A stretch of DNA of 64,000 bases, from positions 211,581-275,580 of the forward strand of contig JBMOPU010000012.1 in NCBI GenBank assembly GCA_049322955.1. The letters run 5' to 3'. The notes below the pieces were generated by a model that saw only the letters and a program-made list of their open reading frames with translations, made no database searches and was not told where the DNA came from. Numbering within the stretch: the first letter of the stretch is position 1; every line of letters starts with the position of its first letter. The stretch comes from Patescibacteria group bacterium (GTDB lineage: Bacteria > Patescibacteriota > Microgenomatia > UBA10105 > UBA927). This document shows positions 34,745-61,577 of the stretch, piece after piece. The translations under genes were made by a program, and so were the position numbers.

Positions 34745-35545
34745 TCAATAAAACACTTCCGTTTCGTGAATAAACGTTGAAAGATACTCACCGTCAAGCA
34801 TCATTTGTGATCTATATTTTTTGAGCGCTTTTTCTTTCGCGTGATATTCATCCTGAGAAAGGTGAATTGTTGAAGCAGAGGAGCGTATCGTGGGAGTATC
34901 TTTTGTATGGATACGGTAAGAGAGAATACCTCCGGTGTAGCCTCCTTCATTAAGGGTGTCCGTAATGACCTGATACACGACTTGATGATCGAGCGCTTCA
35001 TCTTGTCCTGACGGTATATAGAGTTGTTTTGGTGCGGCGGAAGCAAGCAGTGTCCGCATGTCTCCCTGCATGGCCGTGCGCGAGAATAGCGTCCCGTGAT
35101 CGGTTTGTGATTTCCCGGTGTAGGGACTCATAAGAGGTGCTGTCCCCGTGTAGTCATATGCCTCCTCTAACCATCCGTCGGGGTACCCGAGAAAGGTCAC
35201 CTGATTTTGTTTGAGGCCGAGTACGGCAAGCGCCTGCAGTTCTTCGCGTCGCCTGATGCGCCCGAATTTGCGCATGTCCGCGGTCGTCAGTGCCGCTTCC
35301 TTTTTCCCAAACAGCGCCGCCGCCGCGGCTTTGTAGCCATCACCGTCGGTTACGTTCACCACCCGTACCGTTTTACCCCGCGCCCGTGCCTGTTGGATCA
35401 CTCCCGCACAGCAAAGTACCGCATCGTCGGGGTGAGGGGCGATAATCAATATATCGGTTTTTTGTGGGAACGCAGGCGGGTTCATCACAACAACAGCGCC
35501 GAAGAGGAGCAGGAATACAAAAAGCCAAGACCGATGGTATGGCAT
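34745..35545 (-). CDS. PIG-L/LmbE-family N-acetylglucosaminyl-type deacetylase
   Basis: IIAPHPDDAVLCCAGVI…VVNVTDGDG matches the PIG-L (AHPDDE) motif. N-terminal signal/TM segment present. Confidence 0.8.
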   Translation of the reverse strand: MPYHRSWLFVFLLLFGAVVVMNPPAFPQKTDILIIAPHPDDAVLCCAGVIQQARARGKTVRVVNVTDGDGYKAAAAALFGKKEAALTTADMRKFGRIRRREELQALAVLGLKQNQVTFLGYPDGWLEEAYDYTGTAPLMSPYTGKSQTDHGTLFSRTAMQGDMRTLLASAAPKQLYIPSGQDEALDHQVVYQVITDTLNEGGYTGGILSYRIHTKDTPTIRSSASTIHLSQDEYHAKEKALKKYRSQMMLDGEYLSTFIHETEVFY

Positions 35546-35551
35546 AGGAGA

Positions 35552-59727: not shown

Positions 59728-60660
59728 TCAGCCGGGCAGATGAAACGCGGAAATTTCAGGATCTTTTCGGATGAGGCGAACAACCCGCGGATCAGGTGAC
59801 CAAAGACCGATACAGTTCCGATGCCATAGGAGGAATCGCATACCGGGGAGTGCATCGGCGAAGCGCTCAAGCGGTATGGGCACTATACCGAAATTGACGA
59901 TAACGATGCCGTGCGAAGAAATACGTTTTCGGAGAGCGGAAAAAAACGTGTCGGCCGCGACATCTTCGGCAAGACGAACTCCGACAAACATATCAACGAT
60001 GGCGACATCGTAGATACCCCGTGCAGTTCGGAGGAATCGCATCGCTCCCGTTTGGTGCCACGTCATCTTGGGTATGACCTTTGTGGGGACAAAGTACCGT
60101 CGTGCCGCCTGTATGATGGTTTCCGACGGTTCCACCAGATCGACCGAGTCGGCAAGCCGGTGGGTGATGAGCCCGATGCCGATTGATCCGGTACCGCCGC
60201 CCAATATCAGTGCGCGACGCCTCGTACCGGTCGGTCGTCGTATAGCAAGGAGAATACTCCGCACCACATCAAGGTATGCCCATGTATCGCCGGGTGTTCG
60301 ATGCACCATTGATTGTATGCCGCCGTCCGCACAATCCCTGAGGATACGTTTATTTTCGCGAGGGCGTACGGGAAGAAAAAAATCAACGATATCAAAATCA
60401 ATGCCGTGCGCCGTCAGCCGATTTCTTCTGATCCAGAAACCGCCGGTTACGGCAAGGAGTACGGTGAATCCGTACATTGAGAGCAATACGCCGATAAGCA
60501 GGTGTCCCGCAGTCGTGTATCGCGAAAGAAATGCGGCCGTCCCAAGAACAAGCGTGAGAGTAAGCAATACTTTGCTCCCGAAGGGGAGCGTATGAAGCCA
60601 GATCGAGAATCGGACGTTCTGCATGGATATGGGTGAATGAGTTGGGTGTGGTGTCGTCAT
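59728..60660 (-). CDS. Membrane-anchored spermidine-synthase-fold (aminopropyl/methyl-transferase-like) protein
   Basis: Two N-terminal TM helices, then ALILGGGTGSIGIGL…VDLVEPSE…DVAIVDMF…GIVIVN. ATGA overlap with the upstream GT2 gene. Confidence 0.55.
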   Translation of the reverse strand: MTTPHPTHSPISMQNVRFSIWLHTLPFGSKVLLTLTLVLGTAAFLSRYTTAGHLLIGVLLSMYGFTVLLAVTGGFWIRRNRLTAHGIDFDIVDFFLPVRPRENKRILRDCADGGIQSMVHRTPGDTWAYLDVVRSILLAIRRPTGTRRRALILGGGTGSIGIGLITHRLADSVDLVEPSETIIQAARRYFVPTKVIPKMTWHQTGAMRFLRTARGIYDVAIVDMFVGVRLAEDVAADTFFSALRKRISSHGIVIVNFGIVPIPLERFADALPGMRFLLWHRNCIGLWSPDPRVVRLIRKDPEISAFHLPG

Positions 60661-61577
60661 ACGGGTTGGGGAACACGGGTGAACGTATGTATATGATACC
60701 CTCCGGACTTTGCCGCGGCCATAGCCGCGTGAAACAGGAATATCCCGGCTTTTTCGGCGGGAGTGACGCCCCGATACAGTGCAGGGAGGGTAGCAGACTC
60801 AATGCTACGGGATGAAAGAAGTCCATAATTGTTTATAAACGTCGGATCGTGCAGATACATCCTTTCAAGCAGTGCCTTTGTCCTGCCATACAGGTATGCC
60901 TGTCGGAGCAAGGTACCGAGCGGCGCGTTTTTTTTCTCATGGGTCACCGCCGCCGTATGGACATAGAAGAGGGGAATATGGTGCCGAATAAGGCGACAGG
61001 CAAGTTCCTGATCTTCTCCGATAAACGGAAATACATCGGCAAGAAACGGTTCGGGAAATCGGGATAGTGTGGCGCGGTAGGTAAAAATGTTGGCGACGAT
61101 AAGCGCGGTAAGTTTCGGAAACGGAGGAGTCGGTCGCATGCCGAGAGCGGTTGTCTCCCGGTGAAATTGAGACAATCTGACACGTTCGGCTAATCCGTCG
61201 GTTTCATACCGTTGGCGAATAGCCCCTTGATACACCGCATCGGGAACGCTTGTCTTTCTTCGGGAAAGCGTGCTCCGGACGACGGCGAGCCATCGGGGAG
61301 AAACCATACTGTCATCGTCGATGAATGCTATACCTTCCCGCGAGGCAATACGTGCTCCCGTATTGCGACAGTGCGATGCGCCCCTGCGGGTCTCGACGCG
61401 GTAGAGAATGCGATACCGTTTCCCGAATCCGTCGACGATTTGTTTGGTATCGTCTGTGCTGTCATTGTCAACCACGATGACTTCATCGGTGCGGGTGAGT
61501 TGGGGAACCAGACGCTTGAGGCATCGGGCGAGGGTTGCCGCCCTGTTTTTGGTTGGAATGACGATGGAAACATTCAT
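60657..61577 (-). CDS. GT2 (GT-A fold) glycosyltransferase
   Basis: MNVSIVIPTKNRAATL…VIVVDNDSTDDT…FIDDDSMV. Its start ATG overlaps the PqqD-like TGA (ATGA). Confidence 0.75.
   Translation of the reverse strand: MNVSIVIPTKNRAATLARCLKRLVPQLTRTDEVIVVDNDSTDDTKQIVDGFGKRYRILYRVETRRGASHCRNTGARIASREGIAFIDDDSMVSPRWLAVVRSTLSRRKTSVPDAVYQGAIRQRYETDGLAERVRLSQFHRETTALGMRPTPPFPKLTALIVANIFTYRATLSRFPEPFLADVFPFIGEDQELACRLIRHHIPLFYVHTAAVTHEKKNAPLGTLLRQAYLYGRTKALLERMYLHDPTFINNYGLLSSRSIESATLPALYRGVTPAEKAGIFLFHAAMAAAKSGGYHIHTFTRVPQPV

Follow-up and report, generated by a model that had tools for sequence, protein, structure and literature searches.

A conserved locus with eight GT-C-type membrane proteins, probably devoted to envelope glycan assembly, in Gottesmanbacteria-type Patescibacteria

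We analysed a stretch of 64,000 nucleotides from a Patescibacteria group bacterium (contig JBMOPU010000012.1, positions 211,581 to 275,580; hereafter 'the window'), in which a dense gene cluster encodes eight large membrane proteins tied to the GT-C superfamily of glycosyltransferases, together with glycosyltransferases of family 2 (GT2) and sugar-modifying enzymes. Genes fill positions 34745-61858, most gaps between them are shorter than 60 bp and several neighbours overlap by 4 bp. The open reading frames (ORFs) of a preliminary description of this DNA were all found in place; two public Logan contigs contain identical DNA, and the genes called on them give better starts for some window ORFs (refined coordinates: 48121-49761, 51434-52957, 55725-56777, 54580-55716 and 40615-42171). 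Genes are named here by their lower coordinate. Eight GT-C-type genes had been proposed within about 18 kb, and indeed eight polytopic membrane-protein genes lie within 17.4 kb (35552-52957), all of them tied to GT-C. They make up 8 of 13 consecutive genes, for which a rough estimate, assuming 20 such genes per about 1,000, gives a chance probability below 1e-7. The eight genes are:

35552..37843, minus strand: YfhO-like GT-C protein of 763 aa with a predicted C-terminal extracytoplasmic domain and a final transmembrane (TM) helix
37850..39709, minus strand: GT-C protein (ALG6/GPI-mannosyltransferase/GT87-like) with a C-terminal CBM51 (NPCBM) lectin domain
40615..42171, minus strand: paralogue A of a Pfam-less GT-C family, 518 aa
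44387..46081, plus strand: paralogue B of the same family, 564 aa, overlapping 46078 by 4 bp
46078..48117, plus strand: YfhO-family GT-C protein, 679 aa
48121..49761, minus strand: PMT_2-family GT-C protein, 546 aa
49745..51394, minus strand: paralogue C of the Pfam-less family, 549 aa, the member that was modelled
51434..52957, plus strand: putative distant PMT_2-like GT-C protein, 507 aa, first gene of a presumed aminosugar operon

The evidence that ties these proteins to GT-C is of uneven strength and comprises direct Pfam matches, Pfam matches of homologues, structure models and paralogy. Each of the eight has 8-17 hydrophobic segments. Pfam is passed directly by 46078 (YfhO) and 48121 (PMT_2) and via homologues by 35552 (YfhO) and, tentatively, 51434 (PMT_2); 49745 and 37850, whose predicted structures are those behind the fold test, have a GT-C fold according to AlphaFold (AF2) and Foldseek, and 40615 and 44387 follow by paralogy to 49745. 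Five of the eight window proteins (35552, 40615, 44387, 49745 and 51434) had no Pfam match at all, and NCBIfam returned for the eight nothing other than weak matches below cut-off. Profile-profile comparison sorts them into five GT-C lineages, namely 40615/44387/49745, 35552/46078, 48121, 51434 and 37850.

The mutual paralogy of 40615, 44387 and 49745, proposed in the preliminary description, is borne out by both blastp and profile-profile comparison. The products of 40615 and 49745 align over their full length with 27% identity (blastp E 1e-38 to 1e-43), 44387 finds both others at E 1e-7 to 1e-9, and hhalign links all three with probabilities of 99.3-100% (E 1.6e-20 to 3.5e-60), the extreme being 40615 against 49745 (100%, E 3.5e-60), with 99.9% and 99.3% for 44387 against the other two. 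The family is large, yet matches neither Pfam nor NCBIfam nor any PDB sequence: its profile retrieves 4,429 cluster representatives at E<=1e-3 and 819 at E<=1e-30 among 1.84 billion, while none of 85 homologues of 49745 has a Pfam domain and a search of PDB sequences with the 49745 family profile gave no match.

The AF2 model of 49745, built on the alignment of its homologues, reached a pLDDT of 94.5 and a pTM of 0.94, and when it was compared with the PDB by Foldseek, the best 28 matches were GT-C enzymes without exception. The oligosaccharyltransferases STT3, AglB and PglB (GT66) match at E 4e-9 to 1e-6 with TM-scores of about 0.5-0.56, accompanied by ArnT, AftA, DPY19, AftD, ALG9, ALG3 and AftB. 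Like the best-matching STT3, AglB and PglB, the Pfam-less family has a C-terminal soluble domain behind the TM bundle; unlike them, it shows 10-12% sequence identity to these enzymes and has motifs of its own, with D51 and Y55 invariant in loop 1 and the conserved motifs 'ADYFLY' (loop 1) and 'NRLGGVPHQ'. Membership in the oligosaccharyltransferases was rejected, as the signature WWD[YW]G, or even WWD, occurs in 0 of 86 family members. The paralogue phylogeny that had been advised in the preliminary description, a neighbour-joining tree without bootstrap support, places each window paralogue in a separate orthologous clade with one gene per genome. The duplications thus predate the spread of these genomes, and the copies are old and have been kept apart. 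A fourth clade of the family is not represented in the window; some relatives have it as a tandem copy immediately before the gene of 49745 type, on its upstream side (loci L011, L013, L015, L019, L022, L024-L026 and L030 of our synteny scan).

Two genes had been described as YfhO-like, and both assignments hold. The product of 46078 matches PF09586 with 55.8 bits (gathering score 28.5 bits), the match covering its C-terminal 77 residues and profile positions 758-835 of 835 only; it also matches DUF6077 and, weakly, PgfM1 and PgfM2, and a search of the PDB with 46078 alone gave no match. For 35552, which is 100% identical to a protein of a Patescibacteria metagenome-assembled genome (MAG) at NCBI, Pfam gives no direct match, and membership in YfhO is transitive: PF09586 is found in about half of its 45-57%-identical homologues, one of which is named 'YfhO family protein', and hhalign relates the families of 35552 and 46078 with 96.7% probability (E 3.4e-10, 432 columns).

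The pair of PMT_2/ArnT-like genes with acidic loop motifs, as first described, fared less uniformly. The product of 48121 matches PF13231 (GT39/GT83-like) with 45.7 bits (gathering score 26.1 bits) over profile positions 3-160 of 160, but the invariant motif of its loop 1 is W39-D40, which does not bear out the proposed DE motif. Conversely, 51434 has the acidic motif, with R37, F39, D40, D42 and E43 invariant in RYFDADE just after the first TM helix, but shows no direct Pfam match itself; PMT_2 is matched by 4 of 25 members of its family from related genomes, and two of them pass (31.9 bits). A direct relationship between the two families was rejected by profile-profile comparison (7-20% probability), and PDB profile searches with either family found no match.

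The NPCBM domain attributed to 37850 was found by Pfam (PF08305, E 2e-34), along with a sub-threshold match to Alg6_Alg8, and a PDB profile search retrieved CBM51 structures (7js4, E 2.5e-30). In the AF2 model (pLDDT 88.5), the C-terminal domain resembles the CBM51 structure 2vmg with a target-normalised TM-score of 0.82; CBM51 is a sugar-binding module. The membrane domain matches ALG6 (6snh, E 2e-5), GPI mannosyltransferase I, EmbB and PIG-U, with 9wno also listed. Some homologues of 37850 carry PF09594 (GT87), and the name used at JGI is 'Gpi18-like mannosyltransferase'.

All significant Foldseek matches of the membrane domains of 49745 and 37850 are GT-C enzymes. Transporter families, the alternative identity considered for these membrane proteins in the preliminary description, appear for the two models with nothing better than E>0.1 and TM-scores of about 0.1, so that the transporter alternative is not supported. 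Moreover, acidic residues soon after the first TM helix are invariant or nearly so in every family of the eight: D51 in the 49745 family, D40/D42/E43 in 51434, D40 in 48121, E32/D34 (at >=90%) in the 37850 family, E26/D32/D35/D72 in 35552 and D39/D40 in 46078. Since the N-termini ahead of the first TM helix are positively charged, these loop-1 acids probably face outwards, and with them the putative catalytic loop 1.

Following the locus through related genomes, with one genome per species, we obtained 30 loci with a relative of 49745. The recurring order in the long loci is GT2-DegT-LbH-GT2-51434 <> 49745-48121 <> 46078-44387 <> cupin-42231-40615-39769-37850(-35552), LbH denoting a left-handed beta-helix acetyltransferase, and the proteins of these syntenic loci are 35-66% identical to those of the window. 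A 21-kb locus typically shows 6 of the 8 GT-C genes, and the 37850-35552 pair is present where the locus extends far enough (L008, L030 and L033). In some relatives, FdtA-GT2-DegT(-GNAT) stands in place of the RmlC-like cupin. For each gene that was looked at, the homologues belong to Candidatus Gottesmanbacteria, Woesebacteria or unclassified Patescibacteria, and the five GT-C lineages are kept as one-to-one orthologues across the lineage. The locus had initially been called an island. Horizontal acquisition was rejected on account of a uniform GC content (0.45-0.54, even along the whole window) and the conserved synteny; what we see is a syntenic core locus of Gottesmanbacteria and Woesebacteria, not a mobile island.

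Besides the GT-C genes, the locus encodes a set of enzymes that could make, load and modify sugars. The families proposed for them in the preliminary description (DegT, LbH, PIG-L, RmlC-like, HAD, methyltransferases and a decarboxylase dependent on pyridoxal phosphate (PLP)) were all recovered by family matches:

34745..35545, minus strand: PIG-L/LmbE-type de-N-acetylase with a predicted N-terminal hydrophobic anchor or signal (PF02585, E 4e-24)
42966..43778, plus strand: HAD-family phosphatase (PF00702, E 6e-21)
43768..44322, minus strand: RmlC-like cupin of the dTDP-sugar epimerase/isomerase family (PF00908, E 6e-13; TIGR01221 below cut-off)
52954..53733, plus strand: 259-aa GT2 similar to polyprenyl-phosphate sugar synthases, without a TM segment (PF00535)
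53730..54293, plus strand: LbH acetyltransferase, WcaF-like (Hexapep; WcaF family E 8e-25)
54580..55716, plus strand: DegT-family sugar aminotransferase, WecE-like (PF01041, E 1e-84)
55725..56777, plus strand: GT2 with four C-terminal TM helices, 350 aa (PF00535, Glyco_tranf_2_3; best NCBIfam matches of EpsD/MftF type)
56758..57564, plus strand: S-adenosylmethionine-dependent methyltransferase (PF08241, E 2.5e-14)
57561..58889, plus strand: group II PLP-dependent decarboxylase, histidine/tyrosine-decarboxylase-like (PF00282)
58973..59704, plus strand: methyltransferase of the Methyltransf_24 class (PF13578, E 6e-18)
59728..60624, minus strand: membrane-anchored spermidine-synthase-like transferase (PF01564, E 5e-9; two TM segments)
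60657..61577, minus strand: soluble GT2, MftF/EpsD-like (PF00535, E 4e-24; MftF E 3e-28, below cut-off)
61574..61858, minus strand: small PqqD-like protein of 94 aa (PF05402, 44 bits, gathering score 23.4 bits; also called in L037)

Three of these proteins had been taken for GT2s of the DPM1/GtrB type, which act on lipid carriers. At most, this fits 52954, whose best NCBIfam matches are PgfS, PpgS, AglJ and ArnC (all below cut-offs), whereas 55725 and 60657 are of the EpsD/MftF type. PgfS, PpgS, AglJ and ArnC all make polyprenyl-phosphate sugars, and the adjacent 52954 suggests such a lipid-linked sugar as the putative donor of the GT-Cs. The genes 51434, 52954 and 53730 overlap by 4 bp each, and DegT, GT2, methyltransferase and decarboxylase genes continue on the same strand. 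The nearest model of the DegT protein is dTDP-4-amino-4,6-dideoxygalactose transaminase (WecE; 350.7 bits against a cut-off of 375), the decarboxylase is matched by histidine decarboxylase (E 6e-39) and MfnA (E 6e-35), both below cut-offs, and the PIG-L protein shows weak BshB1/MshB matches and hydrophobic segments at aa 8-26 and 32-50; in L033, a PIG-L gene likewise follows the YfhO-like gene.

Based on these findings, we consider it probable, with some reservation, that the locus serves the assembly or decoration of an envelope glycan via a polyprenyl-phosphate-sugar to GT-C route conserved in Gottesmanbacteria-type Patescibacteria. In the cytoplasm, a dTDP-4-keto-6-deoxyhexose would be aminated by the WecE-like DegT protein, acetylated by the LbH protein and possibly epimerised by the RmlC-like cupin, and the PgfS/PpgS/ArnC-like GT2 52954 would load a sugar onto polyprenyl phosphate. 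The lipid-linked sugars, proposed to include a 4-amino-4,6-dideoxyhexose derivative, would then be flipped by a protein encoded outside the locus. At the outer face, each of the eight GT-Cs of five lineages would attach one particular sugar, either to an acceptor that is still growing or to one already in place, with the CBM51 domain of 37850 holding the glycan, and the membrane-anchored PIG-L protein possibly removes an N-acetyl group afterwards. Family and fold, paralogy, gene order and conservation are observed; donors, order of steps, topology and acceptor are what we infer from them.

Several observations weigh against this interpretation. No flippase of the GtrA, Wzx or ArnE/F type was found in the window or about 7 kb beyond it (10 kb past gene 60657), so that a GtrA-like flippase, for which the preliminary description had advised to look nearby, did not turn up in the window or about 7 kb to its right. 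RmlA/RmlB-type sugar-nucleotide genes were likewise not found in the window. The NCBIfam matches of the soluble enzymes all fall below the curated cut-offs, which makes any sugar identity a guess, and the LbH protein 53730 is closest to O-acetyltransferases (WcaF), not to N-acetyltransferases. Among the membrane proteins, 51434 is the weakest GT-C assignment, with transitive evidence alone and no detectable kinship to 48121. A GT-C fold, moreover, need not mean catalysis: PIG-U, one of the matches of 37850, has the fold but is non-catalytic. A GtrA domain fused to the GT2 55725 was considered as well and rejected, as the four-helix tail is without a GtrA match in the window protein and nine orthologues.

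In the extracytoplasmic route of known systems, a sugar is first attached to C55-P by a GT-A enzyme, then brought to the other side of the membrane by a flippase and finally passed on by a GT-C enzyme to an outside acceptor; the flippase gene often lies apart from the others and one flippase can serve several GT-A/GT-C pairs, GT-C enzymes can be without a Pfam domain, and a second protein may bind the acceptor (PMC8035078). The absence of a flippase from the locus is hence not fatal to the envelope-glycan reading. Like CsbB/GtcA/YfhO, GtlA/GtlB and CsdAB/CD/EF (PMC8035078, PMC5836110), all from Gram-positive bacteria, the window combines a GT2 that resembles polyprenyl-phosphate sugar synthases with YfhO- and PMT_2-type GT-Cs predicted to act outside. 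Known genomes, however, have one to three scattered GT-A/GT-C pairs, whereas the window has eight GT-Cs of five lineages in 17.4 kb, a single lipid-carrier-type GT2, no GtrA that we could find and no teichoic-acid context. The three-component logic put forward in the preliminary description therefore stands in part: the GT-C identity and the operon-like run of 52954 with a GT-C, an acetyltransferase and an aminotransferase support it, but a flippase was not found in the window or about 7 kb to its right, and of the three GT2s one resembles the lipid-carrier type.

Do the eight GT-Cs then represent several separate glycosylations, as their number had initially been taken to imply? The multiplicity is real, but one multi-step pathway is indicated at least as well by the one-to-one orthologues. 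Several independent GT-A/GT-C decoration systems side by side, each placing one sugar on a different wall polymer like the three Csd pairs of Lactococcus, would account for five unrelated GT-C lineages and for transcription units that both diverge and converge within the locus; bacteria with several such pairs sharing one flippase are known (PMC8035078). We nevertheless regard this alternative as rather unlikely, with a single lipid-carrier-type GT2 for eight GT-Cs in the window, which precludes a one-to-one pairing, and with the order of the whole block kept across distant genomes. One lipid-carrier GT2 for eight conserved GT-Cs of five lineages suggests multi-step assembly over eight separate decorations, and the data point to one multi-step pathway being at least as likely as several different glycosylations.

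Multi-step assembly lines of this kind exist. EmbC/A/B, AftA-D and PimE of mycobacterial arabinogalactan/LAM synthesis, as well as ALG3/9/12/6/8/10 and PIG-M/V/B in the lumen of the endoplasmic reticulum, are GT-Cs that take monosaccharides from lipid phosphates and in succession assemble a single glycan outside the cytoplasm. The locus resembles the Emb/Aft and ALG/PIG sets in its many different GT-Cs, and the structural matches include AftA, EmbB, ALG6 and GPI mannosyltransferase I; it differs from them in lacking sequence-level membership, in TM-scores of about 0.45-0.6 and in a host genome of about 1 Mb. A second parallel concerns the sugar. The Arn pathway consists of ArnB, ArnA, ArnC, ArnD, ArnE/F and ArnT, and mycobacterial PpgS (Rv3631)/Rv3779 constitute a galactosamine route. 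The operon 51434-GT2-LbH-DegT is reminiscent of both: the DegT aminotransferase, the N-acyl transferase, the GT2 of ArnC/PpgS type, the PMT_2/ArnT-like GT-C and also the de-N-acylase (PIG-L) would all have their counterparts in the window, and the analogy suggests an amino sugar that is carried on the lipid in acylated form and de-acylated later. Unlike in the Arn pathway, the DegT protein of the window comes closer to WecE than to ArnB, an LbH protein takes the part of the ArnA formyltransferase as acyl transferase, the deacylase is of the PIG-L and not the ArnD/NodB type, and there is no ArnE/F; Pfam and NCBIfam searches found no orthologues of ArnA, ArnD or ArnE/F among the locus genes.

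In principle, some of the eight could also have other roles, as polymerases or ligases with a GT-C fold, as scaffolds without catalytic activity, or as transferases for groups other than sugars, for instance amines supplied by the decarboxylase and the spermidine-synthase-like enzyme. The non-catalytic PIG-U among the matches of 37850 would fit, as would the presence of a decarboxylase, two methyltransferases and an aminopropyltransferase-like protein in the locus. With loop-1 acids, typical of active GT-Cs, conserved at or near invariance in all families, we find such roles improbable.

Two further conserved genes lie within the block, and a giant one lies beside it:

39769..40563, minus strand: conserved soluble protein, 264 aa
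42231..42857, minus strand: conserved membrane protein of 208 aa with one TM segment and a Pro/Thr-rich linker
9..34733, plus strand: giant ORF, truncated at the start of the window (11,574 aa or more), convergent on the PIG-L gene

Neither 39769 nor 42231 has a Pfam or NCBIfam family match, and PDB searches with both found nothing. Both are syntenic: 39769 has orthologues in place in L008, L012 and L021 and a 270-aa gene at the equivalent position in L033, and the synteny of 42231 is kept in nine loci. Judging from its sequence, with the linker PTPTKAPTPGASGTT, 42231 could be an accessory subunit or a substrate. The giant ORF has an FHA domain (aa 2878-2949), a TM block (about aa 3857-4017), a Cys-rich C-terminus, a sub-threshold DEAD/ResIII (helicase)-like segment (about aa 178-311) and HExxH at aa 2695 and 11439; no Pfam match was obtained for its last ~6,500 aa, and it contains no Ser/Thr/Pro-rich tracts. 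Of 6 other genomes, 3 likewise have a convergent giant gene after their pair of 37850/35552 type (4 of 7 with the window), encoding 13,555 aa, 7,176 aa and at least 4,413 aa; the giants of different genomes barely align. In the other three genomes, LysM-M23, Rho, DUF2298 and PMT_2 genes take its place. The link between giant gene and GT-C locus is at most suggestive. Genomes in which the giant neighbour is missing have, no more than 10 kb from the 37850/35552-type pair, a gene for a DUF2298 membrane protein (~700 aa) and an additional PMT_2 gene (L036:15800-17932, L040:18057-20177), and these genomes may thus hold further membrane glycosyltransferase candidates.

Could the locus then serve mainly protein O-glycosylation? 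PMT_2/YfhO-type enzymes would in this case act on secreted or membrane proteins, as Pmt and PgfM1/PgfM2 do, and the giant membrane protein, the linker protein 42231 and S-layer or pilus proteins would be candidate targets. Like the streptococcal Pgf system (PgfS, PgfM1, PgfM2; NF047588-90; PMC12041528), the window has a GT2 with PgfS as top match (52954) and a protein whose C-terminus matches PgfM1/PgfM2 (46078), unlike it with scores far below the equivalog cut-offs (54 against 500 bits and 25 against 1400 bits), for which reason 52954 and 46078 are not Pgf orthologues. In favour of O-glycosylation, there are furthermore the PMT_2 and YfhO matches, protein glycosyltransferases (STT3/PglB/AglB and DPY19) as the nearest solved folds of the Pfam-less family, the linker PTPTKAPTPGASGTT and the giant gene adjoining the locus in 4 of 7 genomes. 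On the other hand, the WWDYG motif is missing from all 86 members of the Pfam-less family, ArnT and AftA, whose acceptors are lipids and polysaccharides, come close to the protein glycosyltransferases in score, the giant neighbour is not present in 3 of 7 genomes, the giant protein of the window has no Ser/Thr/Pro-rich tracts, and the giants barely align across genomes. We thus regard protein O-glycosylation as a possibility that is clearly less probable than an envelope glycan, and place it slightly ahead of independent decoration systems.

But, why should such a small genome maintain eight GT-Cs? With genomes of about 1 Mb, Patescibacteria are devoid of most biosynthetic capacity. That a genome of this size keeps eight GT-Cs and about fifteen helper genes in one block indicates that the glycan is probably essential to the envelope or to host contact. 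We also put forward, as a speculation of doubtful standing, that the three paralogues represent an undescribed large GT-C family with oligosaccharyltransferases as nearest folds, that the eight GT-Cs form an extracytoplasmic assembly line specific to the candidate phyla radiation and akin to ALG and Emb/Aft, and that its product is a lineage-defining envelope glycan or a glycosylated giant membrane protein (7,000-13,500 aa); were this true, the glycan could be central to surface building and host attachment of these ultra-small, episymbiont-like cells. The kind of system is already known; what appears new is that it reaches such a scale in so small a genome (about 1 Mb), that a candidate lineage has conserved it, and that it includes a GT-C family without a Pfam model. 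In the literature library searched, no paper on GT-C clusters in Patescibacteria was found; a 2016 paper mentions multiple 'dolichol-phosphate mannosyltransferase' annotations in Peregrinibacteria. With its confident model, the Pfam-less family is a defined target for glycobiologists, and the syntenic gene set is compact enough for an extracytoplasmic glycan pathway of an uncultured phylum to be rebuilt in a heterologous host.

In the window, an Rfam search gave no match, promoter-like sites were as frequent as expected by chance, and for terminator-like sites the count of 33 did not clearly exceed the expected 24.6 ± 5.5. At the right end of the locus, the PqqD-like gene 61574 overlaps the start of the MftF-like GT2 gene 60657 by 4 bp. 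PqqD-like proteins are peptide-recognition elements of pathways for ribosomally synthesised and post-translationally modified peptides, and the pairing hints at a peptide-directed glycosylation. There is also a GDSL-like lipase/acylhydrolase gene (62026-63558, minus strand) whose product has one TM segment and an N-terminal segment that looks S24/S26-peptidase-like by eye. Beyond the right end of the window (L037:1-9552, reaching about 7 kb past it), we found a GDSL-like protein, QueC, a pair of a 232-aa GT2 and a DegT protein, a leucine-rich repeat protein and Wzy_C, the latter an O-antigen-ligase/polymerase-like membrane protein; with this second GT2-DegT pair and Wzy_C, the glycan locus extends further than the window. 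Finally, 14 related MAG records (L003, L007, L008, L014, L018-L020, L024-L027 and L029-L031) are titled 'uncultured Gammaproteobacteria bacterium', yet are syntenic with Gottesmanbacteria and encode proteins up to 66% identical to those of the window; their titles look like a placeholder or wrong taxonomy.

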